Shown: positions 7,601-27,946 of the stretch, piece after piece | Layout of the letters: every line of letters begins with the position of its first letter | How positions within the stretch are numbered: position 1 is the first letter of the stretch | NCBI GenBank assembly: GCA_021324235.1 | Contig: JAJPJM010000050.1 | Coordinates: forward strand, 1-61,308 | DNA: 61,308 bases | Reading direction: 5' to 3' | DNA from: Verrucomicrobiota bacterium | GTDB taxonomy: Bacteria > Verrucomicrobiota > Verrucomicrobiia > Limisphaerales > UBA11358 | Program-made: the position numbers and the translations under genes | The notes under the pieces: generated by a model | What the model saw: the letters and a program-made list of their open reading frames with translations, nothing else | What the model was told of the DNA's origin: nothing | Databases searched by the model: none

Positions 7601-8081
7601 CCGACGTCAGTTCCCCGGCCCTTTCCACCTCGCGCAGGTTTGCGCCATCGACAAATTCCATGAGCAGGTAATGCAAGGGGCCGGCCTGGCCGAAGTCATG
7701 CACCGCCACGATATTGGGATGGCTCAGGCGGGCGAGGGCCCGGGCTTCACGGTTGAAGCGTTCGGCGAAGCCGGGATCGCTGGCCACCGCTGGCGGCAGC
7801 ACTTTCAGGGCGACGAAGCGGTCCAGTGACGGTTGCCGCGCCTTGTAGACCGCCCCCATGCCACCCTGGCCAATCAGACGAAGGATTTCGAGTTGTGGAA
7901 AAAGTCGGGCGATTTCCCCGACCGACGGCGGCACAAACCTCGCGCCGGCCGCTTCACCCGATGCCCCGGTTCCGCTTTCGGTGGGAAAGCCGGACTTGAT
8001 GAGGCATTCCGGGCACAGCCCCAGCGGCACGTCCGGCGGCAGCGGCTTGCGACAATTCGGGCAAATTTTCTCGGTTTCCAT
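4692..8081 (-). CDS. Membrane Ser/Thr protein kinase with TM2, malectin-like and DUF4097-like (beta-helix) domains
   Basis: 1129 aa; N-terminal CPNC...CPEC zinc ribbon; kinase motifs [31 protein letters not shown]; TM2-like FGAHRFYAGK segment; malectin-like block IRAGSS..NGKYVVKLHFAE..INGIEILP; C-terminal VNG-repeat DUF4097-like region. Confidence 0.9.
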   Translation of the reverse strand: METEKICPNCRKPLPPDVPLGLCPECLIKSGFPTESGTGASGEAAGARFVPPSVGEIARLFPQLEILRLIGQGGMGAVYKARQPSLDRFVALKVLPPAVASDPGFAERFNREARALARLSHPNIVAVHDFGQAGPLHYLLMEFVDGANLREVERAGELTSEQALAIVPQICEALQFAHNEGVVHRDIKPENLLMDKKGRVKITDFGIAKMIGLGLGSQTLTGAKDVVGTPHYMAPEQIEKPQTVDHRADIYSLGVVFYEMLTGELPLGKFAPPSKKVEVDVRLDEVVLHALEKEPARRYQHASQVKTDLETIAGTVPPAAGFAAQGGPAPLPATPSGKVTSDKAILPALLLAFPFGMFGAHRFYAGKIGTAFLQLGAFFGCIFMIIACATTGGTFQPTLGILLGFLICGCFFWAVVDWILILCKAFNDGQGRRITQWLHPHNGNLKTGTSPLTGPPSSPPPGGPVPPAGASPQPAPLTPGKVPGASTGMIVAPAVGLMVVALWKLLSALSIVFLLSGGSGWLDKFVNYAIPFGGLGSLLTYSALVKVIPGLLIFFGAFQMLRLRSYAWAMAAGIISIASCSLIGLPVGIWALIVLARPDVRETFAQAARSDSPKPSLWPWVLGTVLVAGVLILIALAVNFAGQTYRSNAASVGTSDGSSPIESSIQAPASPAMPPVPPSATSVTTGDASAPALPPVRIRAGSSESFVDHDGNLWLPDQGFADGEITERPDLAIVNTGDPELYRAERYGMTAFSYPVPNGKYVVKLHFAETYDAITGPGKRVFTFVVEGHEYKDFDVWTEAGGAQRACVETVNVEVDDGTLNINFIPQQQNPQINGIEILPVLPAAAAVAMPPSPKAAKPPGDPPPPREIMIGNLSTTDPFWQNFNQTLPLPANGRLRLDNVNGRIRIVGGDRNEVVIKALKHGKTRESVEAVKINVTSPPDEIVIHTETPPGETGFSWSWFWSNDWRRNNATVDYAIQVPLNTYLKQISDVNGSIIIEDVSGDIGASAVNGQVQVRGAAGNLKVSTVNGRIETELASLSGSQSVSLDTVNGAIEATLPASANAEVTADTVSGGTSSDFPSLTVKKDFPIGRHLKGTLGHGGAHVKINTVNGSIGIRSGKPADPAPPVKN

Positions 8082-8209: not shown

Positions 8210-8983
8210 TTACGTTGCCAGCGCGGCGAACAGGTGGTGCAACTCTTCGTTCACCTCGCCGGGATTGGCCACCGTCTGGGCGATTTCGTCGCGTAACAAC
8301 TGGCGATAGCGCTGGCGCAGGCGATGCACGGCGGACTTCACCGTGCCTTCGTTGACCCCGAGTTTCACCGCGAGTTCCGCATAAGGTTGGGCGGTGCGGT
8401 CGCCCACGAGACACGGGTGCAGCGCGGTGAAAAGTTCCGACTTTCCGTCCTGCTCATATTCTGAACGCAGCCGTTGCAGGACCCGATCGAGCAGCGTCAA
8501 CGCCCAGCGCCGTTCGTAATTTTGTTCCGGGGTGGTTTTGTCAACGGGCTCATGACCGTAACGGGTTTCCGCCGTGTCGAACTGCAAGGGCACGGGCGGC
8601 ACGCCGCCGCCGCGTTTTTGCGCCCGCGCCTTGTCCCATTCGTCGGCAAGAAAATGATTCATGGCCGACAACAGGAAGGAACGGAACCGTCCCTTTTGCT
8701 GGTCGGCCCGGCCGACCCAGTTGTGCTCCAGCAGGCGCGCGAAAAATTCCTGGGTGAGGTCCTGGGCGTCCTCCGGCGAATGGCCGCGCCGGCGCACGTA
8801 GGCATACAGGGGATACCAATAAGTCTGGCACAGGTTCGCCAGTGCCGCCTGTGCGCGGGGGGTGTCGTTGTGTCCCGCCGTCAGCACGACGGACCAGTGG
8901 GTGGTGACAAACGCGGGTCGTGGCGGCGCATCATTCCCGGTCAAAGCCGTGCCCGAGGTCTCGGCGGGGGAGGGCGTGCTCAC
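8210..8983 (-). CDS. ECF-type RNA polymerase sigma factor (Ser/Thr-kinase-associated type)
   Basis: 257 aa; FVTTHWSVVL, region 2 SPEDAQDLTQEFFARLLE, region 4 EGTVKSAVHRLRQRYRQLL; lies directly upstream of the kinase on the same strand; no anti-sigma gene. Confidence 0.88.
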   Translation of the reverse strand: MSTPSPAETSGTALTGNDAPPRPAFVTTHWSVVLTAGHNDTPRAQAALANLCQTYWYPLYAYVRRRGHSPEDAQDLTQEFFARLLEHNWVGRADQQKGRFRSFLLSAMNHFLADEWDKARAQKRGGGVPPVPLQFDTAETRYGHEPVDKTTPEQNYERRWALTLLDRVLQRLRSEYEQDGKSELFTALHPCLVGDRTAQPYAELAVKLGVNEGTVKSAVHRLRQRYRQLLRDEIAQTVANPGEVNEELHHLFAALAT

Positions 8984-9287: not shown

Positions 9288-12200
9288 TCATTTGATGAAA
9301 TAGCCGGCAGATTTCCACTGTCCATCTTTTTCCCGCATGAACGTGACAGTTTCAATTGTGGTTTTTTTATTGGCGAATGAAGTCGCAAATTGCATGACGA
9401 CATATTGACCATCGGGCGCACCGGGCAGTTCTGTCATCAGTTGTGCGGATTTGACTTCACGCGAAACCAGATTGCCCAGCGGTTTGCGGAAAGTGGTCGT
9501 CGCATTTTCCCAGGCGGTTTCGGTGACGGCACCCTGGACAATGGCTGAAGCTTCTTTCCAGCTTTCGGAATAATTGCCGCGGTCAATCAGCGCCAGCCAT
9601 TTCCCGGCAATGACGACGGCGTTCGTTGCGGCTTTCGGCACGGCGGGTGTTACCGGGAGTCCGGTAACCGGATCAATGGTTCCGGTTTCGCCGGGTGACA
9701 TTGGCAGACCGGTGGTGGGATCGATGGAGGTGTTGGTCACAGCCGCGGGAAGCGGGAGTCCGGTGGTGGGATCAATGGTCGTGCCGGGTGCCGCGGGTCG
9801 TACCAGCTTATAACGGACCTTCACGCCACGCGAGTCGCCGGCAAAACCGGGAATTTGCAAAACACCTTTCCCACCTTCCCGGGTTTGAAAGATAAACGTA
9901 TCGGTCTGGCCGGGGATGGCGCTGAAGACTTTCTGTTGCTGAGGCTCCGCTTGCAGCAGCGGCCAATCGTGAATCACGTCGGCGGGAGTAACCATGTCCC
10001 AGCCATTGGTCGGTGCCGGTGCGATGATCATGTCAATGCCCAGCAGCGTCGGGAAATGTTTGGCGGATGGGGTTGTGACCACATCCAGGCCATGGGCGCG
10101 GATCCAGTCGTAACTGCTGCGGCTCTGCCAATCCAACGTCGAATTGGTCAGGACCCTTCCGGAATCCAGATCCAGCCAGCCGAACAAGGCGTTGGGTTGA
10201 GGGTTGAAAGGGAGCATGCGCTCCTGAACGGGAGAAAAATTCCAGGCCTCGGACGTTGGCGTCGTCGTCCGGTTCAGGCAATCGACAATTTGATCAATCT
10301 CGCTGGCATCCATTGAGCCATTCACCTGGCATTCGCCGCCGGGAATAACCGACTGAATTACCGGGGCGGACAGCACCCGGCCACGAAAGACGATAGCCAG
10401 TTGGCGGCCGATGTTGGCTGCCGTGATGGCTTCAAATTTCCTGGCGCCGGTGTCGGTGAAACGAATTTCAATCATCCGCCTTCCGAAGGGGTCAAAATCC
10501 ACACCGGCCTGGGCGATGGCGGTGTCATCGAGCAAAACCTGGCGCGCGAGTTGAAACCGCTCGCGGCCGGAAACCGCCGGCAGATCGTCCGCCGGTTCGG
10601 TTGAATCTTTTGGCAGGACCAGTCGAAATTGGAGTGTGGAAGCCGGCGCATTTCTTTCCCGCCGGATCACAACATCAAAACGCTCGCTGAATTGTGCAGC
10701 AGGAGTGGTGTTGGTAATCCAGCCCGCTTTGCTCTCTTCCAACGCCTCGGCCATGGTCCCAAAATAAATCGAGGCGAAGGGGTGGCCGTCAGCATACATC
10801 GAGACGTGCGGCAGGCCGGGAACGAGATAGGGATGAATCAGTTCAAAATCACCGCGGCCTTTGGAAATTTGCATCTGCTCTTTGAGACCGACGGGAACGG
10901 CGATGTTGTTGGTGGTGGTGATGTAAAGTGCCAACAATGCTTGATTGTGACTGACCAGGTGGTAATGGCCTCTGACCGTCATCTGATTTTCGGTTCGTTC
11001 GACCGAGGTGATTTCAATCAAGTCGTCCCCGGGGAACCAGGTCTGGCCGATGTAATCGGATTTAATCGGATGAAAATGACCGGCAATCAGATGCGAAAAG
11101 ACGGTCCGCGTCAACTCGTAGGACAGAATCAGGACAAAAATGAATGCCGCAAACTTCCACGCGGAACCGAAGCGCGCCGGCCGGCGGTATTCCGGATTCC
11201 TGTCTTGTTGATTCGCCTCAAAGGCCGCACGCACCTCGCGACGGAACAAAAGGATCAACGCCCAGATGCCAAAAGGCAGGCCAAGGATTGCGCCCGGCCC
11301 GGTGACGGCGGCCACAATGCCCGCCGCGATGCTGAACGGATAATTTCGCAGTTTCATCATCCTGGCGGCGCCGAGCAGAACGATGACACCGGCGATCGAG
11401 AGCAAGGCGGCTCCAAAACCGACCGCCGCATAACCGGCGGGATCACCTCCTTCGTGGGCGATGGCCGGCATGGCGAAGATCAGTAATCCCAGGCTGAAAA
11501 GCAATTGCAGTGCGCCGGCAGCAACCAATCCCCGGGCCGGGATTTTCAATTGGTTCCGGGCTGCTTCGATTTGCGCCGCCGTGATTGGTTCCGCGGAACC
11601 GGCGCCGGCGGGCGTTGTCGCAATCGTTTCGACTGCGGTCTTCACCTGGCTCACGTGCTGATAGCGGCGGCCGGGTTCCTTTTCCAGGGCATGCAGAACC
11701 ACTTCATCCAGTCGTACGTCGATTTGTACTTTGGCCGACGGCGGCTGAAATTTTCCCAACGGCAGTTCGCCGGTGAGCATTTCGTAGAAAACCACGCCGA
11801 GGGAATAAATGTCCGCGCGATGGTCCACCGTCAACGGTTTCTCGATCTGCTCCGGCGCCATGTAATGTGGCGTGCCCACCGCGTCCTTCGCGCCGGTGAG
11901 CGTTTGTTGCCCGGGCTCGTCGCCCATCATCTTCGCAATGCCAAAATCGGCAATTTTCACCCGGCCGGATTTGTCGAGCAGGATGTTTTCGGGCTTGATG
12001 TCGCGGTGGACGATGCCTTGTTCGTGAGCGTATTGGAGCGCCTCGCAAATCTTCGGCACAATCGTCAACGCCTGATCCGGTTTCATTTTTCCGGTCTGCA
12101 GCAACTGCCGCAGGTTCAGGCCGTCCACAAATTCCATCACCAGATAACAAATGCCCGCCCGCTTCGCCGAAGTCGTGGACGGTGACGATATTAGGATGGT

Positions 12201-12759
12201 TCAGCCGCGCCAGGGCCTGGGCTTCGCGTGTGAACCGCCCGGCGAACTGCGCATCCTGCTCCTTTTCCCGGGCCAGGATTTTGAGCGCGACGAAGCGGTT
12301 CAAGCGCGGTTGCCGCGCCTTATAGACAACGCCCATGCCACCCCGGCCGAGGCATTCGAGAATTTCCAGTTGCGGAAACAGCGCGGCGATTTCGGCCGTC
12401 GAGGGCGGCGGATGAACGACCTTGGTTCCGTGCGGGCCGGATGTGCGCGGTCCCTCCGTTTGAGTGGCGAGGCCGGCCTTCAGCATGCATTCGGGGCAAA
12501 TCCCGCCCAGTGCCGTTGGCGGCACTGGCTTTCCGCAATGCGGACAATTACTCTGAGGTGCTTGGGCGGTTTGGGCGGGTGCTGAGGGCGTTGGCACCAC
12601 CGGCGGATTGGGCGGAGGCGGTTGGCGCCGTCGGAGCAGCAGGTAAATAATGCCGCAGATCACTGCGACCATCGTTAGCGGCAGCACGAAACCGACGAGG
12701 ATGAAAATCATCGTCTCCCATCCGCCAAAGAATGCAGCAAACAAAGGATGTGGCGTCAT
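9288..12759 (-). pseudogene. Membrane Ser/Thr protein kinase interrupted by a 1-nt frameshift (pseudogene or sequence error)
   Basis: ORF 11704-12759 gives TM + CPHC..CPEC + kinase N-lobe up to [14 protein letters not shown] 9288-12140 continues [12 protein letters not shown]...[14 protein letters not shown] in another frame. Removing one T in TTGTTAT (12144-12150) restores [11 protein letters not shown], matching the paralog at 4692-8081. Confidence 0.85.
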
Positions 12760-16069: not shown

Positions 16070-17869
16070 ATGCTGAATGCAAAGTCATTTTTGGCGGTCG
16101 ATTTTGGGGCGGGCAGCCTCAAGTTGGCGACTTTTGAAATCAATGAAGTCGGCGGTCTGTGCCTGAAAGGCTTCACCCTGAAATCGCTGGGACCGGAAGG
16201 TGCGGCCGAAGCCACGCGCGAAGCCGTCCTGCTCAAGGTCCTGCGGGAGACCCTGGCGGAAACCGGCGTGTCGGCCCGGAACATCAATGTCTGCGCACCG
16301 GGTTTTCAGGTATTTTCCAAATTCGTCAAACTCCCGCCGGTGGACGCGGGCAAGGTGACGCAAATCATCCAGTACGAGGCCCAACAAAACGTGCCGTTCC
16401 CGCTGGCCGAAGTCGTGTGGGACTATCAGATTCTCGGTTCCAGTTCGACGGGCGAACTGGAGGTATTGTTGGTGGCAATCAAGTCGGAGATCGTCGAGGG
16501 ACTGTTCCGCATTGCGGAGGAGGCGAAGTTGCGGTTGCAATTGTGCGATGTTTCACCGGCGGCCCTGTGCAATGCGTTTCGCTTCAATTACGGGGATTTG
16601 GAGGACTGCACGATGTTGCTGGACATCGGGGCCAAGACCAGCAACCTGCTCTTCTTTGAAAAAGGCAAGGTTTTTTCCCGCAGCATCAGCCTCGGCGCCA
16701 ATTCCATCACCCAGGATTTTGCCAACGAGGCGAAGTTGAAATTTGAAATCGCCGAGCAGATCAAAGTCGCCGAGGGTTTCGTCAGCCTGGGCGGCGCGTA
16801 TGAAGAGCCGGAGAATCCGAATCAGGCGGCCATTTCCAAGATCGCCCGGCAGTTCATGACGAAGCTGCACATTCAAGTCAACCAGACCATCCAATTTTAC
16901 CGCGGCCAGATGGGGGGAGCGGCGCCCCAGCGGCTTTTTCTGGCCGGCGGCGCCGCCATCATGCCTTACACGGCGCAATTCTTCGCCGAAAAACTCAACG
17001 CGCCGGTCGAATACTTCAATCCGTTCCGCAATGTGCAGATTGATCCGTCGGTAAACCTGGAAGAATTGGCGCGCGTGGCGCATGCTTTGGGTGAAGTGGT
17101 CGGCCTGGGCCTGCGTAATCTGGCGAATTGTCCGGTGGAGATGAATTTGATGCCGGAAAGCACACTGCGCTGGCGGACGTTCAACGAAAAGAAACCGTAT
17201 TTCATCGCCACCGTTTTCAGTCTCGTGGCGGTGGCGTTTGCGGTCGGGTTCCTCTTTGAAAAACTGGCCATCTCGAAAGAAGCGGAACTGGACAAACTCC
17301 AACCGGAGGTGCAGCAACTCCAGGAGCGGGCGGATGCGTTCAACCGGATTTACTCGCAAGTCGGCGCCACGCGGAAGGAAGCCGATCAAATCGCGGCCTG
17401 GATGGGGGATCGGTATTATTGGGGCGACGTGCTGGCTGAATTGCGGCGGGTGTTGGTTCGTGCCGAAAACGGCGTGCAGAAGAAGCTGTCGGCCCAGCGG
17501 GCCGGCGTGCAGGCCGGCATCTGGATCGAACAGTTGATCACCACGGCCCCCGCGGGGTCGGGTCCGAATTCTTTAGCGGGTTTTAACGGCGGAGCGCCGG
17601 CCAACACGGAGAACCCGATAACGAGCCCGGCCCAGCCGCAACCCAATCAAAGCGGCGCCATCACTCTCATTTGCCGGGCGGTGAGCTTGTCCAAGGTGGA
17701 TCCGGCGGCGAACAGCGACATTGCCTACACTGTGGAAAATGAATTGCAGGCCAGCCCCGATTTTGATCCCAAAGCGACGCAACTCACCGGCCAGATTAAT
17801 GCGGAGGATGCCTCCGGCACGTTCACCTTCGGGATTTCGGCCGTGCTTAAAAACCCACTGAATTTTTAG
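16070..17869 (+). CDS. PilM-like actin-fold ATPase fused to a PilN-like TM/coiled-coil segment (Amuc_1101-like)
   Basis: 599 aa; FLAVDFGAGSLKLA phosphate-1 motif and DIGAKTSNL; TM helix KKPYFIATVFSLVAVAFAVGFLF followed by a coiled coil; first gene of the pilus-like locus. Confidence 0.8.
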   Translation: MLNAKSFLAVDFGAGSLKLATFEINEVGGLCLKGFTLKSLGPEGAAEATREAVLLKVLRETLAETGVSARNINVCAPGFQVFSKFVKLPPVDAGKVTQIIQYEAQQNVPFPLAEVVWDYQILGSSSTGELEVLLVAIKSEIVEGLFRIAEEAKLRLQLCDVSPAALCNAFRFNYGDLEDCTMLLDIGAKTSNLLFFEKGKVFSRSISLGANSITQDFANEAKLKFEIAEQIKVAEGFVSLGGAYEEPENPNQAAISKIARQFMTKLHIQVNQTIQFYRGQMGGAAPQRLFLAGGAAIMPYTAQFFAEKLNAPVEYFNPFRNVQIDPSVNLEELARVAHALGEVVGLGLRNLANCPVEMNLMPESTLRWRTFNEKKPYFIATVFSLVAVAFAVGFLFEKLAISKEAELDKLQPEVQQLQERADAFNRIYSQVGATRKEADQIAAWMGDRYYWGDVLAELRRVLVRAENGVQKKLSAQRAGVQAGIWIEQLITTAPAGSGPNSLAGFNGGAPANTENPITSPAQPQPNQSGAITLICRAVSLSKVDPAANSDIAYTVENELQASPDFDPKATQLTGQINAEDASGTFTFGISAVLKNPLNF

Positions 17870-17870
17870 C

Positions 17871-18806
17871 ATGGCCTGGATCAAGAGAAATTTGCTTTTT
17901 GTCGTCGGCGCGGTGATTGCCATCGGATTGCTGGCCGCCGCCGGCTTCTACGATTTTAAAAATTGGCAGCGCAACAACGCGGCGTTGGACGCGTTGAATC
18001 AGGCCTACGTCAAACTACAGGGCCTCTACAGTCAAAACCCATCGCCCGGCAACGATACCATCGACAACACCAAAACCGCCGGCGAACAAGAACGACAACT
18101 GCGCCAATGGATCCAGGAAACGGAGCAATACTTTCAGCCGATTTCCCCCATACCTGACCCCGCCAAAGGGGCGATCACGGATGCCAGATTTGCCGGCGCG
18201 CGCGACCATACCCTGAATCAGTTGCAGTTGGAAGCCGCCAGCGCCAGTGTCACCGTGCCGCCTCAGTACGAGTTCTCCTTTGAAGCGGAACGGACGCTGG
18301 TGAAATTTTCGCCGGGCGGTCTGGATGCGCTGGCCCAGCAGCTCGGTGAGGTGAAGGTGATATCTGAAATTCTTTATGCCGCCAAAATCAATTCCCTGGA
18401 TGGCGTCCGCCGTGTGCGGGTGTCGAACGATGATGCCAGCGGGCCACAGTCGGATTATCTCGATCAGACGATCACGACCAATGATCTCGCCGTCTTTACA
18501 CCGTATGAAGTGACTTTCCGCTGTTTCAGCCAGGACCTGGCCGGCGTGCTGTCGAGTTTTGCATCATCGCCGCATGGATTCATTGTGAAAAGCATCAACG
18601 TGCAACCGGCGGCGGGGGTGACGGCGGCGTCACCGGCGGGTGCCCCCGGAGGAGAAATGGGTGGATTCGCGCCACCGCCGTCTTTTGCCCAACCGGCCGC
18701 GCCGGTTGCGCCCATGGGCCGCGGGGGGTTGCAAACGGTGCTCAACGAGCAGCTGCTGAGCATCACCCTGGATGTTGAAATCGTCAAACTGTTGCCGGGA
18801 AATTAA
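17871..18806 (+). CDS. Amuc_1100-family pilus-like protein (tentative)
   Basis: 311 aa; N-terminal TM helix, central helical region, Pro/Ala-rich segment, conserved C-terminal strand LSITLDVEIVKL; size, architecture and position after the PilM-like gene match my recollection of Akkermansia Amuc_1100. Confidence 0.6.
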   Translation: MAWIKRNLLFVVGAVIAIGLLAAAGFYDFKNWQRNNAALDALNQAYVKLQGLYSQNPSPGNDTIDNTKTAGEQERQLRQWIQETEQYFQPISPIPDPAKGAITDARFAGARDHTLNQLQLEAASASVTVPPQYEFSFEAERTLVKFSPGGLDALAQQLGEVKVISEILYAAKINSLDGVRRVRVSNDDASGPQSDYLDQTITTNDLAVFTPYEVTFRCFSQDLAGVLSSFASSPHGFIVKSINVQPAAGVTAASPAGAPGGEMGGFAPPPSFAQPAAPVAPMGRGGLQTVLNEQLLSITLDVEIVKLLPGN

Positions 18807-18809
18807 TCC

Positions 18810-19604
18810 ATGGATTTCCTTAAAAAACATTACGAAAAGATTTTGCTCGGCGTGGTCTTGCTGGGTCTGGTGGGGGCAATGGTTTTTTTGCCCTTCATGA
18901 TTTTGCATGACCGCTCCATACTGGAGGACACCCGCACCCAGATCATTTCCCGTCCCGTCAAGCCGCTCCCGCCGCTGGATTTGACGACCGAGAGCAACGC
19001 CGCCGAACGCCTGCGATTGCCCTACCAGCTTGATTTTGAGACGACCAATAAGCTGTTTAATCCCGTCGAATGGGAAAGGGCTGTGGACGGGACCCTCATC
19101 AAGATCGCCAGCGGCAATGAGGTGGGACCGGGGGCGGTGATGATCGCCCGCATCCTGCCATTGTACTTCACGTTGACATTGGATTCGGTGCAAACCAATG
19201 AATTCGGTGTGCGTTACATCATTGGCGTCGAGCGTCAAGCCGCGCCGGTGGCGTGGCAGCGCGCCAAGCGACAGCATTATGCTTCGGTCGGTGAGAAAAA
19301 CGAAGCCTTTACCATCACGGATGTGCAGGGACCACCGTCTGACCCCACGCAATTGGTTGTGCAATTAACCGATTCGGGCGAGACGGCGACCATATCCAGG
19401 ACCCAGCCGTTTCGCCGCGTGGACGCCTTCATGGCGGATTTAAAATATCGTCCCGAAGGGAAAAGTTGGGATGGCCAGCGCGTGGGCGACGACCTGAAAT
19501 TTGCGGGCAGCGATTACATTATCGTTGCCATCAACCGGAACGAGGTGGTATTATCTGCCGCATCGAACCAGAAAAAAACAACGTTAACTTATAATCCTAA
19601 ATGA
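18810..19604 (+). CDS. Membrane-anchored pilus-locus protein (Amuc_1099-like position; function unknown)
   Basis: 264 aa; N-terminal TM helix; 3-nt gap from the upstream gene; located between the Amuc_1100-like gene and the secretin. Confidence 0.6.
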   Translation: MDFLKKHYEKILLGVVLLGLVGAMVFLPFMILHDRSILEDTRTQIISRPVKPLPPLDLTTESNAAERLRLPYQLDFETTNKLFNPVEWERAVDGTLIKIASGNEVGPGAVMIARILPLYFTLTLDSVQTNEFGVRYIIGVERQAAPVAWQRAKRQHYASVGEKNEAFTITDVQGPPSDPTQLVVQLTDSGETATISRTQPFRRVDAFMADLKYRPEGKSWDGQRVGDDLKFAGSDYIIVAINRNEVVLSAASNQKKTTLTYNPK

Positions 19605-19625: not shown

Positions 19626-21917
19626 GTGTCCAGCGACGCTGACACCGAAAACCTGAATTCAGCCATGACAAAAGCAGTTTCCGTCCCACTCGGTTTCATT
19701 TTCATATTGGCAGGCGCCTTGATGTTGCCGGCCCAAACCAACAGCCCGGCCGACATGGCCGTCAGTGAAGCCGTGTTGCGGCAGGCCAATACCGTGGTTC
19801 TGCGCCAGAAGCTGGTGCAAGCCCAGGACGCCGCCGCGCACAACGATTTGGGGCTCGCTTCCAAATTGTACGAGGATGCTTACCAGCTCGTACAAAACAT
19901 CGGTTCCGGCATTGACGCCGAGTCCGCCCAGACCATTTCGGGGTTGGTGTCCGTAAGGCTTGAATTGGCGCGGGAGGCGCAGCGTCAGGGTGATTATCGG
20001 GAGGCCGACACGCAGGTTAACCGGGTGCTGAAGGTGGACCCTCAAAATCCCGCCGCGCTGGCGTTCAAGAAACAAAATGACCGATTGATAGCCGCCCTGC
20101 GCGGCAAGGTGCCCGACGATGCGACGCTTCAACAAGTTCCAACCATTGCCGCCGATAAAACGGATGCGAACACACTGGTGCGTGACGGCAAACTGCTTTA
20201 CGAGATGGGAAAATTTGAAGATGCCGAAGCCAAGTTGCAACAGGCGCTGAAACTGGATCCGATGAACGAGGGCGCCTATTATTATATGACCCTGGTCAAA
20301 CAGGCTGTCGATGCCCGTGAAGAGCGGATGCACACGACGGACAATCAAACCCGCATCGTGGAAGTGACCAAGGCATGGGAATCCCCCACGAGAAACAGCG
20401 CACAGTTGCCCGTGCCCAATCCGTACGCTACCAATGACCTCGTTCACACCGGTCCGGGACGTGAGGCCATCATGAGTAAACTCAACCGCATACGGCTCGA
20501 CCAGGTGTTTTATGATGGCTTGCCGTTGAGCGAAGTCGTTCGCAACCTGAGCGAACAAGCCAAGGTGCGCGACCCGGACAAGGTGGGCATCAATTTTTTG
20601 ATTAATCCCAACGCGGATAATTCCGCGTCCGTCACGACTGTCACCCCCACGATTGGTGCGGGCTCTCCGTTCGGCGGCGCCGGTGCGGGCGGTATTCCGG
20701 GTGCTGCCGGTGGTGGTCAGCAGATCGATCCCACAACGGGTTTGCCCATCAACGCGGCACCGACCACCGGTGGGGAATCCGTGGATATCAATTCGGTCAT
20801 TGTCAGGATCAATCCGCCGCTCAGCAATGTGCGCATGGCGGACGCGTTGGATGCGATTGTGGAGGTTGCGGATCACCCCATTGAATATTCCATCAGTGAT
20901 TATGCCGTCGTTTTCTCGGCCAAAGGGCCGCGTTCACCGCAACTTTTTTCACGGACGTTCAAAGTGGATCCCAACACCTTTGTTCAGGGGCTGGAAAGCG
21001 TTGGTTCGCTCGTCTTTGTCAATAATAACAGCAGCGGCTCCAGTGGTTCCGGTGGCAGCTCCGGCGGCGGCGGCAGCAGCAGTGGCGGCGGGAGTGGCCA
21101 AAACAGCAGTGTGGGCCTTCTGGCAATTGTTAATGCCGCGCCGGGCGAATCGGGCAACCGCTCCAGCGGGACTGGCGGTGGCGGTGGTGGCGGCGGTGGC
21201 GGTGGCGCTGGCGGCGCTGGCGGTCAAACCGGCAATGGCGGATTGGATTTCGTGACCACCACAAACAATATGGTGGACGTAAGCACGTCGGCACGGGACT
21301 TCTTCACGACCTTGGGAGTGAATTTATATCCACCGAAAAGCATTTTCTTTAACGACCGGTTGGGATTGCTGTTTGTGCGCGCGACGATGCAGGACTTGGA
21401 CACCATCGAGAGCGCCATTCAGGCGTTGAATCAGGTGGCGCCCCAGGTCCACATCAAGTCGCGATTTGTTCAAGTGGAACAGGACGACAATGCCGGCCTG
21501 GGTTTTGACTGGTACTTGGGACAGTTCAACATCGGCAATTCGGTTTCCGCCCAGGGCGGTAGCGCGCCGTCGCTCAACGTCCCGGGTCCGGGGGGCACGG
21601 CGGTGCCCTTCCCCGGTCCCACCGCCGCCAATCAAATTCCCTCTTCACAGTTCGATCAACAAATAACGGCGGGGCTTAACAACTCGGCTCTCCCCGCCAT
21701 CGGGACCCTCACCGGCATCCTGACCAATCCCAACTTCCGGGTGGTCCTCCATGCCTTGGAACAGCGCCAGGGCGTCGAAGAACTGGCCGAACCGGAGGTG
21801 ACCACCACCAGCGGACGGCAGACCGAGATGCGGGCAACGGAGATCATAACCGTCATCACGGGTTTCAGCTTCCAGCAAGGCACGGCCGCCACGACCACCA
21901 CCGCCGGTACACCGTAA
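19626..21917 (+). CDS. Secretin, N-terminal part (TPR-like region, secretin N-domains, Gly/Ser linkers, first segment of the secretin C-domain)
   Basis: 763 aa (GTG 19626; a more likely ATG at 19665 gives the signal peptide MTKAVSVPLGFIFILAGALMLPAQ); ends NFRVVLHALEQRQGVEELAEPEVTTTSGRQTEMRATEII..., i.e. inside the conserved secretin domain, then TAA 21915-21917. Confidence 0.8.
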   Translation: MSSDADTENLNSAMTKAVSVPLGFIFILAGALMLPAQTNSPADMAVSEAVLRQANTVVLRQKLVQAQDAAAHNDLGLASKLYEDAYQLVQNIGSGIDAESAQTISGLVSVRLELAREAQRQGDYREADTQVNRVLKVDPQNPAALAFKKQNDRLIAALRGKVPDDATLQQVPTIAADKTDANTLVRDGKLLYEMGKFEDAEAKLQQALKLDPMNEGAYYYMTLVKQAVDAREERMHTTDNQTRIVEVTKAWESPTRNSAQLPVPNPYATNDLVHTGPGREAIMSKLNRIRLDQVFYDGLPLSEVVRNLSEQAKVRDPDKVGINFLINPNADNSASVTTVTPTIGAGSPFGGAGAGGIPGAAGGGQQIDPTTGLPINAAPTTGGESVDINSVIVRINPPLSNVRMADALDAIVEVADHPIEYSISDYAVVFSAKGPRSPQLFSRTFKVDPNTFVQGLESVGSLVFVNNNSSGSSGSGGSSGGGGSSSGGGSGQNSSVGLLAIVNAAPGESGNRSSGTGGGGGGGGGGGAGGAGGQTGNGGLDFVTTTNNMVDVSTSARDFFTTLGVNLYPPKSIFFNDRLGLLFVRATMQDLDTIESAIQALNQVAPQVHIKSRFVQVEQDDNAGLGFDWYLGQFNIGNSVSAQGGSAPSLNVPGPGGTAVPFPGPTAANQIPSSQFDQQITAGLNNSALPAIGTLTGILTNPNFRVVLHALEQRQGVEELAEPEVTTTSGRQTEMRATEIITVITGFSFQQGTAATTTTAGTP
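21021..21242 (+). repeat. Coding GGN/AGC triplet-repeat tracts (poly-Gly/Ser linkers) inside the secretin gene
   Basis: Encodes NNNSSGSSGSGGSSGGGGSSSGGGSG and GTGGGGGGGGGGGAGGAGG; long runs of GGC/GGT codons at the DNA level. Confidence 0.85.
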
Positions 21918-21941
21918 GAATATTTTTGAGCAACGAAACAA

Positions 21942-22589
21942 ATGAAAACGCATCGTAAGGATAACATTTTCAAGCTGGCGGTGGGAATCCTCGTCGCCGT
22001 CGGCTTCATTCAACGGGTCAGCGCCCAGAACAACACCTTTGCTCCAGGCGTCTCCGCCATCACGCCGACAACCCAAGCCATTGAGACCGGCCCGATACTG
22101 GATGTGGTGCCGTACGTTTTGTCCGATGGTTATACGATCAACCTGACGCTGATTCCGTCGCTGACTGAATTCGCCGGTTATGCCACGCCGCCCAACGTTG
22201 CCAATGTCACCGGCGGCCTGAACGTGGTGCAATTGCCCGTGATTCTGCCTGATTTTACCGTGCGGCAGGTCATTACCACCGTAAACGTCTGGGATGGCCA
22301 GACCGTGGTGCTTGGTGGATTGATTAATTCCCAGACCCAGACCGAAAAGGACAAAGTGCCGGTCATTGGCGATTTGCCGATTCTCGGCCGCCTTTTTCAA
22401 AGTCAGACCAAGACAGCCGTAAAAAAGAATCTGATGATTTTTGTCACCGCGACAATCGTGGATCCGGCCGGCAACCGTGTTCATTCAGACGATGAGCTGC
22501 CGTTTGCGCAAAGCGCCATTCCGCCACAGCCGCCGGGGGCGGGACACGCGACTGAAACCGACCGAACGGTGACACTGCCTCCGCAGTAA
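21942..22589 (+). CDS. Secretin, C-terminal part with its own signal peptide
   Basis: 215 aa; MKTHRKDNIFKLAVGILVAVGFIQRVSA|QNN, then secretin C-domain blocks GPILDVVPYV, VWDGQTVVLGGL, KVPVIGDLPILGRLF and LMIFVTATIV; same reading frame as 19626-21917. Confidence 0.8.
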   Translation: MKTHRKDNIFKLAVGILVAVGFIQRVSAQNNTFAPGVSAITPTTQAIETGPILDVVPYVLSDGYTINLTLIPSLTEFAGYATPPNVANVTGGLNVVQLPVILPDFTVRQVITTVNVWDGQTVVLGGLINSQTQTEKDKVPVIGDLPILGRLFQSQTKTAVKKNLMIFVTATIVDPAGNRVHSDDELPFAQSAIPPQPPGAGHATETDRTVTLPPQ

Positions 22590-23551: not shown

Positions 23552-23639
23552 AAAAATGAATTTGCCGGATTCGATGCCAGTATGGTTCGCGGCCAATCGC
23601 CCGGCGCGTTTTGGCCAAACTAATTTTGGACAAAATGCG

Positions 23640-25652
23640 ATGAAGCGGGTACACTCGGACAAATCAATTATGTTGCCGTCGTTCGCTCGTAAAATTGTGT
23701 GGTTTGGTATTTTGCTCGCCGGAATTCCCGCTGCGGTTTTCGGGCAGACGAACTATTACGCCACCAATGGAACCGAATACGCCATCGTCGGTTCCCTGCC
23801 GGGCGATCAGGTTCATCCCGACGCCGCGGTGAACACGAATGGCGGTTTTGTGGTCTGGCAGGACAACATCACCGACGGCAGCGGCTGGGGTGTGAGTGCG
23901 ATGCAGTTGAACAGCACGCTTTCCGGTTCCGGCAGTTCTTTCCGGGTCAATGTGCAGGGGACCGCTGATCAGGAAAACCCGCGGGTGGCCTTGTTGCAGG
24001 GCGGCGGCGCAGTGTTCGCCTGGCAGGGCGGCGTGGAAGGATTGAACCAGCATATCTACGCGCGATTTCTTTCCGCCGGTGGCACTTGGTTAACGTCAAC
24101 TGATGTGTTGGTCAGTACCTTCACCAATAATTTTCAACAAAACCCGGCCGTGGCCACCCTTGCCAACGGAAATGTCATCTTCATTTGGGCCAGTTTTGAT
24201 GAGGTGAGTTCCAATAGCATGCAGGATGTCTATGGCCGGATTTTTTCGCCGACCGGTGTGCCGGTTACCGGTGAATTTCTCGTCAACCAATATACTGCCT
24301 ACAATCAGCGCACGCCAACGGTGGCCGCGCTGGCCAACGGCGGATTCGTTGCCGCCTGGGTGTCTGAACAGGAACGAACGACTGCGCCCAATCCCGGAGC
24401 GGGTGTTCTCGTGATCACAAACACCGCCGCGACTCCCAATCCCAGCGTGGACATCTACGCCCGGCTCTATGATGGCAGTGGCAACGCCCAAGGCGGCGAA
24501 TTTCTGGTCAACACGGATTTCAATCCCTGCGCCGATCCCAATGCGGCGGGCGGCTCGGATGGCGGTTTCGTGGTGACTTGGGACGCGCGGGACATGACCA
24601 GCCCGCTGACCAACAGCCTGGACATTTATGCCCGGTCGTTTACCAGCGCTGGCGCTGGCAGCGGCGGCACGGTTCTCCGGGTGAACACTTATCTTTATGG
24701 CGACCAATATGCGCCGCGCATCAGTTCATTGCAGACGGATTATCTGATTGTGTGGACGAGTCTGGCGCAGGACGGTTCGCGTGAGGGCGTTTATGGACAG
24801 TTTCTGCAAGGCACCGGCTCGAAGGTCGGCGGAGAATTCCGCGTCAACACCACGACACTCAATTCGCAAATCCAGCCGGTGGTCGCGTCCGACGGGGCCA
24901 GTCAATTTCTGGCCATCTGGAGCAGTTTCACCGGTCTGCCGTATAGTTTTGATTTGTATGCACAGCGTTATCTCAACTCCCTGCAGCCATTGGAGCCGTT
25001 GCCCGCCCCGTTTGTTTATGTGCCGTTTGTGACCAGTAATGGTGTTTACCAGCCTCAATTGCAGGTGTCCTGGCCGCCGGTGACCGGTCTGTCGATCTCC
25101 AATTATGAAATTTATGTAAATGGCGCGGGCACGCCGACGGTGGTGACCACGAGCAATGTATGGACCATGACGGCGGCAAACGGTTTGACGGTGAACAGCA
25201 GTAATTACTTCCGGGTGGATTATGTAGCGACGGATGGCCGCCGCTCGCCCTTGTCGCCCGCGGCCGGCGGCACGACGTGGAGCGGCGCCAATTATTACGG
25301 CATTCCCTTTGAATGGATGGAACAATACTACGGTTACAATTTTGCCAACTGGCCAACCAATGTGAACGCGCCTTTGGCGCGGGGTGGCTTGAGCCTGCTG
25401 CAGGTATTCTCGAGTGGGGGTAATCCGTTGGATTCCAGCACGTGGCTGCGGACGGCGCTGGCCAATACGCCGCAGGGCCTGTTCCTGAACTGGAACACCC
25501 AGCCGGGATTCACATATCAGGTGCAAATGACGACCAACTTTGGCGTTTGGAACAATGTGGGTGAGCCGCGGTTTGCGGCGGGCACCAGTGATTCCATTTT
25601 TGTCGGCAGCAGTACCGCCGGCTTTTACCGCGTTTTGCTGCTGCACCAGTGA
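23640..25652 (+). CDS. Large exported protein: 7 internal ~55-aa repeats (beta-propeller-like), Fn3-like domain, C-terminal FYRV domain
   Basis: ORF opens at 23556, but the signal peptide (MLPSFARKIVWFGILLAGIPAAVFG) favours ATG 23640 or 23670; repeat pattern F.VN...Q..P.VA.L..GGFVV.W...D.Y(A/G)(R/Q)(F/Y). Confidence 0.75.
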   Translation: MKRVHSDKSIMLPSFARKIVWFGILLAGIPAAVFGQTNYYATNGTEYAIVGSLPGDQVHPDAAVNTNGGFVVWQDNITDGSGWGVSAMQLNSTLSGSGSSFRVNVQGTADQENPRVALLQGGGAVFAWQGGVEGLNQHIYARFLSAGGTWLTSTDVLVSTFTNNFQQNPAVATLANGNVIFIWASFDEVSSNSMQDVYGRIFSPTGVPVTGEFLVNQYTAYNQRTPTVAALANGGFVAAWVSEQERTTAPNPGAGVLVITNTAATPNPSVDIYARLYDGSGNAQGGEFLVNTDFNPCADPNAAGGSDGGFVVTWDARDMTSPLTNSLDIYARSFTSAGAGSGGTVLRVNTYLYGDQYAPRISSLQTDYLIVWTSLAQDGSREGVYGQFLQGTGSKVGGEFRVNTTTLNSQIQPVVASDGASQFLAIWSSFTGLPYSFDLYAQRYLNSLQPLEPLPAPFVYVPFVTSNGVYQPQLQVSWPPVTGLSISNYEIYVNGAGTPTVVTTSNVWTMTAANGLTVNSSNYFRVDYVATDGRRSPLSPAAGGTTWSGANYYGIPFEWMEQYYGYNFANWPTNVNAPLARGGLSLLQVFSSGGNPLDSSTWLRTALANTPQGLFLNWNTQPGFTYQVQMTTNFGVWNNVGEPRFAAGTSDSIFVGSSTAGFYRVLLLHQ

Positions 25653-27946
25653 AAATGTCTATGAGGCAATTGACAAAATATTTCCTATTAACCGGTTTTC
25701 TGGCCTTGGGTCTCCAATCGGCTTGGGCGTTTTCATTGTTGGGACCGGAAGCCAATGGCGGGGATGCCTGGCAGGTAAATGCAAATGGGTATAATCCCAT
25801 ATTAAATTCCGGCGCGCCGCCGTTCTTCCTCGATTCCCTTTCCGCAGCGCCCAAAAACCTGGGCGAGGGCTACCGCCGCAATACGCCGTTAATTTATTAT
25901 ACGTTCGATGCGAGTTTTAGCGACTACTTTGGTTCAAACGGTGAGGCAGCCGTGCAATCGGCGTTTGATATTCTGAATGGCCTGACGAATATGGACAGAT
26001 ACAGCACAAGCCTGTCGGAATTTCCCTTGAATTCGGAAAGCGAGAATTATCTGGCGAATGCTCTGGGTTTGGTCGATTTGAAATCCACCACCCTGGCTTT
26101 GTTGATGGAACAGTTGGGATTGGCCGACCCGGTCCGTTACATGTGGGTGTTGCACGACCGTCTCCAGTTGCCGGGATGTACGGTCGCTTGTCCGGCTTGC
26201 ATGGAATACCTGGTCACCATAAGAAATTTTGATTATTTTCCAACTCCGCTCGACCAGATTCAATATTCGGACTACATCAATAACGAACTTTATTCCTATG
26301 TCATCAGCGAGATTTGCGGCTCGCCCGTCGCACCGCCCAATGCGGATGCCATTGAATTGCCCGCTGACCCTTTGAACCTCAATCCGCCGGTGGCTTCCGG
26401 GAATGGCGAAGAAGCCTTGCCGATGGGCTTTTTTTACACCGGGTTGACGCGGGACGACGTGGGCGGCTTGCGCTGGCTTTATAGTACCAACAATTGGGAT
26501 ACCACCAGCCCGCAGTATCGGGAATCGGCGGCGGCCGGAAGTCTTCTTTTCAGCACCAATTTTACTCTCACGCCCCCTCCATTGCTGGCCACATCCAATC
26601 TCAATGTCCTGGTGTTGGCGGCAATGACCAACTCTCCCGCTGCGCTGCAGGCGTTGTTTCCCGGATTGTCAGTCGACTCCACCTTCCTCTATTACACCAA
26701 CATGGTTTCAGTCGGGAGTGTGACGTTCGTTACCGTTTTCCCATACGGTTATCCGGGGGGAATTGTTGAGGCCGTGACCAATTATGTGACCAACAATGCC
26801 GTGCCGATTTACAATTTTTCATTCGACAATGTGGTCACCAATAAGTCTTATGCGAAAACCTCGTATGCCATCCAAACCGTCACGTTTGGACCGCCCATTG
26901 GCCAGCCGGCGGACAGTCCGTTTATACTCGTGACCAATACCTCCCCGGTGCTTCAATCCAATGTGGTATCGGGAGACTTCTTCATCATCACCAATGGCAC
27001 TTGTGGTCCCAACATCATTCAGACCATTCAGACCAATGTGAATGTCTTTACCAATAATTCCGTGACGGTGGTAAACCCGGACGGCTCATTTTTCATTCAA
27101 AACCTGATTTCTTATTTCACGAATTACGTCTTTGCGGTGAATCCCTGCACCTTGGTGACCAATGGCGTGGGTGACTATCAAGGGGTTGGCCGGCTGCAAT
27201 TTGTGCGCGTGCGCGATGATAATTACGATTACTTGAACGGGCAATTCTTTGTGCCCATCACCAACCAGTACACCATGGTGGTGATTACGAATGGCCAGCT
27301 GGTGACCCAAACCTTCCAGCGCGTGCTGGCGGGTCCCGATTTGGTGTTTGGGGCGGCCGATTTGGCAGCTGGCCCGAGTTCGGGCAACGCCGTTTCCGAG
27401 TTCACCCGGGGTGTTAATTTCAATCAGGCCAACATCCAACCTGGGCTTGCCGGTCCCGGCACCATTGACCCTGGCAGCTCCAATGCCGTTGTGTTCGATA
27501 AGGTCGGCCCGGTTTTTGACAATCAATCTCTATCCCAATTGAATGGGCCGAATGGTGCCAACCATGGTTTCTTTGTCTGGGGTTCGTTCGATGGTACCAC
27601 CAATCCCCCGGTGATTTATCCGAACGGCGCCAGCCTCGCGAATCTGGCTGCGTCGTCGTTGGTTCAGATATCTCCGCCCCCGCCGGCCCTGCCCAACGGT
27701 ACCAATCGAGTGGCTTACAATGTTGCGTTTACCGTTACGAATGCCACACCGCCTTACACTTGGACGTTGGCGCCCAATTCGGCGGGATTGCCGTATGGAT
27801 CGCCCAATCTGACCCTGTCTCCCGGCGGCCTCATTTCCGGCACGCCGACCAACAGCGCGACGTATAATAACATTCTCATCCAGATGACGGATTCCGGCGT
27901 GCCGCCGCGCACCGTGCAGATGATTTATTCATTAACCATCAATTAA
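25649..27946 (+). CDS. Large exported protein of unknown function with a C-terminal Ig-like (He_PIG-type) domain
   Basis: 765 aa; GTG 25649 overlaps the upstream stop (alternative ATG 25655); signal peptide ...LALGLQSAWA; C-terminus PPYTWTLAPNSAGLPYG..LISGTPT..TDSG fits the putative-Ig motif. Confidence 0.75.
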   Translation: MKMSMRQLTKYFLLTGFLALGLQSAWAFSLLGPEANGGDAWQVNANGYNPILNSGAPPFFLDSLSAAPKNLGEGYRRNTPLIYYTFDASFSDYFGSNGEAAVQSAFDILNGLTNMDRYSTSLSEFPLNSESENYLANALGLVDLKSTTLALLMEQLGLADPVRYMWVLHDRLQLPGCTVACPACMEYLVTIRNFDYFPTPLDQIQYSDYINNELYSYVISEICGSPVAPPNADAIELPADPLNLNPPVASGNGEEALPMGFFYTGLTRDDVGGLRWLYSTNNWDTTSPQYRESAAAGSLLFSTNFTLTPPPLLATSNLNVLVLAAMTNSPAALQALFPGLSVDSTFLYYTNMVSVGSVTFVTVFPYGYPGGIVEAVTNYVTNNAVPIYNFSFDNVVTNKSYAKTSYAIQTVTFGPPIGQPADSPFILVTNTSPVLQSNVVSGDFFIITNGTCGPNIIQTIQTNVNVFTNNSVTVVNPDGSFFIQNLISYFTNYVFAVNPCTLVTNGVGDYQGVGRLQFVRVRDDNYDYLNGQFFVPITNQYTMVVITNGQLVTQTFQRVLAGPDLVFGAADLAAGPSSGNAVSEFTRGVNFNQANIQPGLAGPGTIDPGSSNAVVFDKVGPVFDNQSLSQLNGPNGANHGFFVWGSFDGTTNPPVIYPNGASLANLAASSLVQISPPPPALPNGTNRVAYNVAFTVTNATPPYTWTLAPNSAGLPYGSPNLTLSPGGLISGTPTNSATYNNILIQMTDSGVPPRTVQMIYSLTIN

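Follow-up and report, generated by a model that had tools for sequence, protein, structure and literature searches.

A PilQ-like secretin of Verrucomicrobiota probably built from two separately encoded chains and divided at the predicted tip of its periplasmic gate

Type II and type III secretion, type IV pili and the export of filamentous phages all use secretins as their outer-membrane gates. Among the best-matching described members is Amuc_1098 PilQ of Akkermansia (family NF042912), a single outer-membrane polypeptide of 907 residues (PMC4960237). The locus considered here lies in contig JAJPJM010000050.1 of a Verrucomicrobiota bacterium, of which a stretch of 61,308 nt (the window) was analysed, with the coordinates of the two open reading frames (ORFs) of interest, ORF1 and ORF2, given on its forward strand. 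Summed, the two ORFs resemble the Amuc_1098-family PilQ in having a signal peptide, a tetratricopeptide repeat (TPR) module, N domains and a C-terminal secretin domain, and the Akkermansia cluster likewise has an Amuc_1101-like PilM and an Amuc_1100-like gene upstream; both belong to Verrucomicrobia. In contrast to the single chain of Amuc_1098, however, two genes are present here, and the cut between them falls inside the secretin domain. Judged from comparative sequence analysis, it is highly probable that the locus encodes a working two-chain secretin and is not a broken gene.

The designation "split secretin" has already been given to RhcC1 (NolW) and RhcC2 of the rhizobial-type type III secretion system (T3SS) and to HrcIIC1 and HrcIIC2 of the P. 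syringae T3SS-2 (PMC3574062, PMC3973906), and hrcIIC2 is said to be divided once more in one P. syringae pv. tabaci strain (PMC3574062), which could represent a strain-specific lesion. The Rhc system is comparable to the present locus in that the secretin occupies more than one ORF, the arrangement is conserved within a lineage and the functional meaning of the split is unsettled. The position of the division differs. In pNGR234a, NolW (234 amino acids, aa) contains only N0 and Secretin_N domains, while RhcC2 (475 aa) carries T2SS-T3SS_pil_N, BON and the complete PF00263 domain (positions 1-169); the Rhc split thus follows a domain boundary and leaves barrel and gate on one chain, whereas the split described here cuts the barrel/gate domain itself. 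The genomic setting differs as well: nolW (84.4-85.1 kb) and rhcC2 (96.7-98.1 kb) are about 11.6 kb apart within a T3SS cluster at 69-98 kb, whereas ORF1 and ORF2 are separated by 24 nt in a type IV pilus-like operon, and no T3SS genes lie close to them. RhcC2 also has a Tad/Cpa-type architecture and stands beside a gene annotated as a CpaD-family pilus assembly protein (L083 2094-4097, corresponding to pNGR234a 96093-98096), while the domains of NolW (L082 39373-40077) are of the T3SS type. The rhizobial split secretin may consequently be a combination of parts from different origins, not the product of simple fission.

ORF1 comprises 763 aa when counted from GTG 19626 and ends in ...ITGFSFQQGTAATTTTAGTP (in longer form ...EMRATEIITVITGFSFQQGTAATTTTAGTP) before a TAA stop at 21915-21917. 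Its real start is probably ATG 19665, which would open a signal peptide, MTKAVSVPLGFIFILAGALMLPA, followed by Gln; the one-piece homologues L032 and L068 show a similar hydrophobic segment and then PA followed by Gln at the matching place. ORF2 runs from ATG 21942 to a stop at 22587-22589 (215 aa) in the same frame as ORF1, and it begins with MKTHRKDNIFKLAVGILVAVGFIQRVSA followed by QNN, so numbered that the mature N-terminal peptide from the predicted Gln29 reads QNNTFAPGVSAITPTTQAIETGPILDVVPYVLSDGYTINLTLIPSLTEFAGYATPPNVANVTGGLNVVQLPVILPDFTVR. The description given in the initial annotation, an ORF1 stop inside the secretin domain followed by a same-frame ORF2 with a predicted signal peptide, agrees with these coordinates and with the domain matches below. 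The AT-rich character that it assigned to the roughly 60 nt around the junction is also borne out, the GC content being 0.33 over 21910-21969, compared with 0.574 in the whole window and 0.58-0.63 in the flanks; a value this low occurs in just 0.4% of the 60-nt segments of the window. The second in-frame stop that it reported downstream of the TAA, a TGA, does exist at 21927-21929 but is not kept in relatives. The features of the two genes are as follows.

19626-21917, + strand: ORF1, the N-terminal secretin gene ('pilQ-N'), with its own predicted signal peptide, TPRs, N domains, Gly/Ser linkers, an N3-like domain and the first approximately 43 positions of the secretin-domain profile.
19665-19733, + strand: predicted ORF1 signal peptide (MTKAVSVPLGFIFILAGALMLPA, then Gln), as read from the sequence.
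19953-20288, + strand: ORF1 TPR region, residues approximately 110-221 (Pfam TPR_11, TPR_2, TPR_16 and TPR_1).
21021-21242, + strand: two Gly/Ser-rich low-complexity linkers in ORF1, residues 466-495 and 513-539.
21291-21914, + strand: the C-terminal 208 residues of ORF1, N3-like domain and start of the secretin domain, alignable with one-piece homologues.
21840-21914, + strand: predicted first GATE1 strand and Thr-rich tail (EIITVITGFSFQQGTAATTTTAGTP), the last 25 residues of ORF1, from profile alignment to 5wq9 and 9k8v.
21915-21941, + strand: ORF1 TAA and the 24-nt AT-rich spacer, with the incidental TGA at 21927-21929 inside it.
21942-22025, + strand: predicted Sec signal peptide of ORF2 (MKTHRKDNIFKLAVGILVAVGFIQRVSA), from sequence features, with cleavage before Q29.
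22026-22091, + strand: predicted second GATE1 strand (QNNTFAPGVSAITPTTQAIETG), up to the Gly matching InvG Gly407, from phmmer alignment.
22026-22589, + strand: mature ORF2 ('pilQ-C', 187 aa) and stop, covering PF00263 positions 44-169 and a conserved C-terminal extension.

The secretin domain is divided between the two genes without loss. ORF2 matches PF00263 (Secretin) at positions 44-169 of 169 with an E value of 6e-28 (Pfam), and the C-terminal piece of ORF1 alone (203-208 residues) gives no PF00263 match; when the last 208 residues of ORF1 are joined to mature ORF2, a single unbroken match to positions 1-169 is obtained (105.5 bits), with positions 1-43 supplied by the C-terminus of ORF1. 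Likewise, on the GspD model TIGR02517 the ORF1 match extends to position 468, and residue 40 of ORF2 picks up at 472. A complete PF00263 domain is therefore present only in both ORFs combined, from which no part of it is absent. The pair does not have the whole barrel and gate on one polypeptide, as all solved secretins do, because the stop at 21915-21917 and the new start at 21942 fall inside the domain. On the Amuc_1098-family model of NCBIfam, ORF1 covers positions 4-379 (220 bits) and ORF2 positions 646-804 (133.4 bits); since these scores are far below the curated NF042912 cutoff of 750 bits, the two ORFs are regarded as a distant relative of Amuc_1098 and not as its equivalog.

In InvG, GATE1 is the hairpin that strands 4 and 5 make, with kinks at Asn386 and the conserved Gly407 and a tip at about residues 395-400 (Hu et al. 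2018, PMC6155069). It constitutes the physical barrier of the periplasmic gate, and InvG Asn386 has its counterparts in PulD (Gly458) and V. cholerae GspD (Gly453) (PMC6155069). Single-sequence phmmer searches against the PDB aligned only the two ends of the domain, and the position of GspD G453 was assigned by profile search: the residue that differs between the V. cholerae GspD entries 9k8v (wild-type) and 5wq9 (G453A) aligns with ORF1 Thr738, the T of "RAT" in ...EMRA-T-EIITVITGFSF... At the other end, InvG residue 407 aligns by phmmer with ORF2 Gly50, the Gly of ...ETG-P.LDVVPY. With ORF1 ending 25 residues past the first kink position and mature ORF2 starting 21 residues ahead of the second, the cut is mapped to the tip of the predicted GATE1 hairpin, at PF00263 position 43/44. 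The initial annotation had proposed the PF00263 profile and an alignment to known secretins as the means of placing the break. The hairpin would be about twice as long as that of InvG, with 46 residues between the kink positions against 20.

A structural model points to the same region. In the AlphaFold2 (AF2) model of the one-piece homologue P0121, built from a 50-sequence alignment with a predicted local distance difference test score (pLDDT) of 71, the site corresponding to the junction lies in a low-confidence loop (223-241) flanked by long strands, of which 210-222 corresponds to the first GATE1 strand and 242-263 to the second; the model shows long beta-hairpins. A Foldseek search with this model returned 40 matches at E below 0.001, all of them solved secretins (E 2e-18 to 7e-11), the best being GspD, PulD, PilQ and InvG at about 1e-18. 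The secretin protomer fold is thus recovered for the P0121 one-piece homologue, which stands in for the two chains of the window. The superpositions (template modelling score about 0.38, root-mean-square deviation 11-13 Å) serve for fold identity, not for mapping.

Solved single-chain secretins (GspD/PulD, PilQ, InvG and pIV) share with the present pair the same domain, the predicted fold and the GATE1 landmarks (V. cholerae GspD G453, PulD G458 and InvG N386 at one side and InvG G407 at the other). Their GATE1 hairpin is continuous, whereas here its tip is predicted to be a chain break with a free C-terminus and a free N-terminus, in a hairpin approximately twice as long. No description of an intra-barrel split secretin or of a split Verrucomicrobia PilQ was found beyond the Rhc cases in the literature searched, which is short on subscription journals. 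Split secretin genes as such are already known, but because RhcC2 holds the whole PF00263 domain, a cut inside the barrel and gate looks new. The statement of the initial annotation that every known secretin builds its barrel from one polypeptide therefore holds for the cases checked, RhcC2 included, although it did not take account of the split secretin genes described before.

Relatives were sought in one genome per species of the Genome Taxonomy Database (GTDB), which yielded 187 species representatives with the locus; the best 80 of the 187 were retrieved. Nearly all are metagenome-assembled genomes (MAGs) that carry the label Verrucomicrobia subdivision 3, Limisphaerales or Verrucomicrobiia and originate from bog, peat, soil and lake samples. 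The split layout occurs in about 74 of the 80 loci, with an ORF1 homologue of about 720-810 aa whose ...TP or ...TQ end lies just before ORF2, and the independent assemblies that show it, about 70 in number, were made from short as well as long reads. A continuous single ORF is found in two loci (L032 and L068), and the remaining few are broken or truncated assemblies (L012, L020, L065, L075, short contigs). In L012, L020, L065 and L075, which are MFD-series long-read MAGs, the reading frame of the ORF1 homologue is broken or shifted at other places, and these interruptions look like assembly indels. Separately, one MAG (DASXFM, SMAG_U5138) has two contigs, L070 and L074, each with an ORF2-type gene, for which a duplicated locus or mixed strains are possible.

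Junction features were counted in the 55 loci with both ends cleanly placed. The spacer measures 14-32 nt (median 23), ORF1 stops at TAA in 50 loci and at TGA in 5, and its last residue is Pro in 38 and Gln in 16, while the 30 nt upstream of the ORF2 ATG have a mean GC content of 37% in the related loci. The frame offset from ORF1 to ORF2 is 0 in 22 loci, 1 in 7 and 2 in 26; because it varies in this way, the shared frame in the window, to which the initial annotation had attached meaning, is a coincidence.

The arrangement extends well beyond the retrieved loci. A search with the ORF2 protein gave 3000 matches, the top 120 clusters of which are all about 215 aa long with end-to-end coverage and 69-92% identity; more than 120 clusters of such proteins exist at the 90% level in Verrucomicrobiota MAGs, usually under the database names "general secretion pathway protein D" or "hypothetical protein". 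In an exhaustive search among 50%-identity representatives, most relatives are long single chains, and short ORF2-like proteins with predicted signal peptides occur at identities of only 51-57% (P0244, P0248, P0259 and P0268). The metagenome contigs of two of these, from distant lineages at 51-54% identity, show the same layout, in which an upstream ORF ending in ...GFGTP or ...TVTP before its stop is followed after 19 or 36 nt by a signal-peptide-like start. Since distant lineages share the layout, the split arrangement is considered old and widespread.

Selection on the two halves was assessed by the ratio of nonsynonymous to synonymous substitution rates (dN/dS), obtained with the Nei-Gojobori method for twelve close pairs. 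ORF1 gave values of 0.09-0.29 as a whole and 0.05-0.25 over its last 210 codons, and mature ORF2 gave 0.04-0.21 in 11 of the 12 pairs; both halves are under purifying selection. The segment encoding the ORF2 signal peptide gave 0.3-1.0, as expected for a segment that is constrained in character and not in sequence. In an alignment of 27 ORF2 sequences the mature part is strongly conserved; the first approximately 28 residues vary yet retain a signal-peptide character, and A28, Q29 and G50 are invariant. By simple feature counts covering the n-region, h-region and cleavage motif, used in place of a dedicated predictor, Sec signal peptidase I features are present on ORF2: an MK start in 52 of 55 loci, a net positive n-region in 54, an uncharged run of at least 10 residues in all 55 and a small-x-small motif followed by Gln in 45, with a predicted length of 26-31. 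A lipoprotein signal was considered for a Cys in the h-region of some homologues and set aside, there being no conserved lipobox. Conservation of the split, the spacer and the signal-peptide features, purifying selection on both halves and the constant gene order described below all support the two-polypeptide secretin that the initial annotation had put forward.

Gln occupies position +1 after both predicted signal peptides, following LPA in ORF1 (19731-19736) and VSA in ORF2 (22023-22028). Both predicted cleavage sites recall a Gln(+1)/pyroglutamate rule that has been described for signal peptidase I substrates of Bacteroidetes.

One-piece relatives (L032, L068, P0121 and others) are colinear with ORF1 plus ORF2 and lack the stop, the spacer and the signal peptide, with no other difference at the junction. 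The one-piece junction of L032 reads ...TGFSFQSPPASTSTGGGG-TTINNPGPSAITVDDQQVETGPLLDVVPY..., and the window aligned to it reads ...TGFSFQQGTAATTTTAGTP, stop, 24 nt, the leader MKTHRKDNIFKLAVGILVAVGFIQRVSA, then QNNTFAPGVSAITPTTQAIETGPILDVVPY... Once the signal peptide is removed, the two products would together correspond to a one-piece protein with a single nick in a Thr/Gly-rich loop. Many more one-piece relatives, at 47-81% identity, were recovered when the one-piece C-terminal region served as query. In a neighbour-joining (NJ) tree of 89 sequences (about 390 columns, 100 bootstraps), the outgroups are all one-piece and all split sequences fall into one clade with 100% support, within which one-piece forms are nested: L032 and P0121 with the split L021 and L027 (100%), and P0125 with the split L017-L019 (99%). 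In the orthologue comparison suggested by the initial annotation, stop and signal peptide are kept in about 74 of 80 loci, and one-piece forms also occur in the clade.

This topology indicates that one-piece and two-piece forms have interconverted within the clade. The simplest reading is one old fission followed by several in-frame re-fusions, because the split site is always the same and the MK...AQ leader remains recognisably related; repeated fission or recombination may also account for the pattern. A second type of split at the poly-Gly linker was also considered, since one-piece matches of about 400 aa (P0127, P0165, P0170, P0180, P0205 and P0208, on contigs of 90-690 kb) are called from just after this linker. 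It was set aside: because these calls lack a signal peptide and start at an internal Met or a non-Met residue after the linker, they are probably truncated gene calls or the result of frameshifts in the GGC-rich linker, though the linker of one-piece relatives may offer a second natural break point.

In all 58 loci with full flanks, the same kinds of genes adjoin the pair: PilM-like, 311-aa and 264-aa ORFs upstream and a 5'-3' exonuclease downstream. The upstream genes in the window are as follows.

16070-17869, + strand: PilM-like gene of 599 aa, the first of a conserved five-gene cluster and on the same strand as the secretin genes in all 58 loci (PilM_2, 2.9e-35; Amuc_1101 family, 1.4e-141, 473 bits against a cutoff of 650).
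17871-18806, + strand: 311-aa ORF, a weak relative of the Amuc_1100 family (1.1e-16, 61 bits against a cutoff of 180, full-length alignment).
18810-19604, + strand: 264-aa ORF without a Pfam or NCBIfam match, syntenic in 58 of 58 loci.

The 264-aa ORF presumably occupies the position of Amuc_1099, going by locus-tag order in the Akkermansia cluster. A TPR-containing secretin within an Amuc_1101-like/Amuc_1100-like cluster is thus present, with neighbour scores below the family cutoffs, and the locus is the soil-Verrucomicrobia counterpart of the pilus-like cluster Amuc_1098-1101 of Akkermansia, which includes the much-studied Amuc_1100. A scan for promoters and terminators found no site at the ORF1-ORF2 junction, a weakly informative result given that sites elsewhere were no commoner than in shuffled controls. 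Downstream, the ORFs at 23556-25652 (698 aa, no Pfam match) and 25649-27946 (765 aa), both on the + strand, have hydrophobic N-terminal segments that are possible signal peptides. Elsewhere in the window, a Ser/Thr kinase gene on the - strand (9288-12759) lies in two overlapping ORFs, one at 11704-12759 covering Pkinase positions 2-70 and one at 9288-12140 covering positions 76-202 together with a SecDF_P1_head-like domain and DUF4019; this possible frameshift may be real or an assembly error. A further Ser/Thr kinase of 1129 aa with TM2, Malectin and DUF4097 (4692-8081, - strand) adjoins a gene for an ECF-type sigma factor (8210-8983).

It is proposed that an ancestral single-chain Amuc_1098-like PilQ was cut by an insert of about 110 nt, consisting of a stop, an AT-rich spacer and a segment coding for a signal peptide, which would have been placed in the low-complexity Thr/Gly-rich loop at the GATE1 tip. 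ORF1 and ORF2 would be co-transcribed as the last two genes of a pilM/Amuc_1100-like/orf264/pilQ-N/pilQ-C operon, as suggested by the short spacer, the lack of a terminator- or promoter-like site between them and their invariant adjacency, and they would be translated separately. Each product would then be exported by Sec via its own signal peptide and cleaved before Gln. The TPR module, the N domains, the beginning of the secretin domain and the first strand of GATE1 would come from mature ORF1, whereas mature ORF2 would contribute the other GATE1 strand, the remainder of the barrel, the lip, GATE2 and the C-terminal extension. Pairing of the halves through the two GATE1 strands and the adjoining sheets, at a presumed 1:1 ratio, would give one protomer-equivalent, and such units would oligomerise into the usual double-walled channel with the C-terminus of ORF1 and the N-terminus of ORF2 free at the centre of the gate. 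The anatomy of the genes, its conservation, purifying selection on both halves, the exact match to one-piece relatives and the placing of the cut in GATE1 are shown by the data, whereas co-transcription, separate export, signal-peptide cleavage, co-assembly and any functional consequence are inferred from them. It is considered likely that one protein contributes its C-terminus and another its N-terminus to GATE1, the two being exported independently of each other. Because lineages switched between the two forms repeatedly with no other change, the cut seems nearly neutral, being tolerated in an exposed, flexible and low-complexity loop at the GATE1 tip.

Several observations weigh against this two-chain model. 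In the remaining close pair, mature ORF2 gave a dN/dS of 0.82, at a dS of only 0.04. A Shine-Dalgarno-like motif precedes ORF2 in only 13 of 55 loci, which amounts to a weak ribosome-binding signal for separate translation. The AF2 model is a monomer of a one-piece homologue with a moderate pLDDT of 71 and superposes poorly on solved secretins, as a monomer model that stands for the protomer of a 15-mer would. Finally, recombination or paralogy could explain part of the nesting in the NJ tree, which is based on about 390 columns.

Among the alternative readings, an adaptive split retains the most weight and is nevertheless regarded as rather unlikely. It could, for example, provide a looser gate for a substrate or fibre, or delay pore formation until the periplasm and thereby spare the inner membrane. 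The long persistence and wide distribution of the split form, the conserved ...TP/...TQ end of ORF1 together with the invariant Gln at the new N-terminus, and the unusually long GATE1 (46 residues against 20 in InvG) would all fit such a role, whereas the reversion of several lineages to one piece argues against a strong advantage.

A less probable alternative, judged improbable overall, is that the two products have diverged in role and do not rebuild a protomer, with ORF1 acting as a periplasmic or pilotin-like scaffold and ORF2 forming some other smaller structure or cap, or remaining as an uncleaved anchor. The large N-terminal modules of ORF1 could work alone, and the small-x-small motif before Gln is found in only 45 of 55 loci; Ala-Gln at the predicted cleavage site is, however, invariant in the 27 aligned sequences. 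Moreover, neither half has a complete secretin domain while the two together cover PF00263 1-169, both GATE1 strands beside the cut are conserved in genes that are always adjacent, and the switches between one and two pieces occur without other change, which implies a single structural unit.

Programmed recoding, by which readthrough or frameshifting would yield one continuous polypeptide, is highly improbable: ORF1 and ORF2 share a frame in the window with only 8 codons between them, but offsets vary among loci (22/7/26), which rules out readthrough or a fixed frameshift, the spacers of 14-32 nt have no conserved sequence, readthrough here would have to pass two stops, and the product would carry at the gate tip a 28-residue hydrophobic segment that is absent from one-piece relatives. 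Equally hard to credit is the reading, raised by the initial annotation, of a recently inactivated gene or a sequencing or assembly error, in which the stops are a lesion and the signal peptide a chance resemblance; two in-frame stops close together in the frame of ORF2, a possible second disrupted gene in the window (the kinase at 9288-12759) and the few related long-read MAG loci with a broken ORF1 (L012, L020, L065 and L075) would suit it, but the cut recurs at one site in distant lineages and in about 74 of the 80 species-level genomes, which stem from many projects, the signal-peptide features persist although the sequence drifts, database clusters of about 215 aa number more than 120 at the 90% level, and neither half shows relaxed selection, dN/dS being well below 1 in both. 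Conservation across dozens of species-level genomes together with low dN/dS excludes a sequencing error or a fresh pseudogene, and a systematic assembly artefact common to the loci is implausible because spacers and frames vary.

For annotation, the proteins of about 215 aa called "GspD" or "hypothetical" and the upstream proteins of about 760 aa in Limisphaerales MAGs are best labelled as the two halves of a PilQ-like secretin, not as fragments or pseudogenes. If the two-chain model is correct, neither assembly nor gating would require the gate and the secretin beta-sandwich to be covalently continuous, and a protomer could be rebuilt from two separately exported fragments. In engineering, the GATE1 tip could then serve as a permissive site, for instance for split reporters, insertions or gate probes, and the natural pairs of one-piece and two-piece forms would offer material for studying secretin folding, pilotin-independent assembly and the mechanics, opening and leakiness of the gate.

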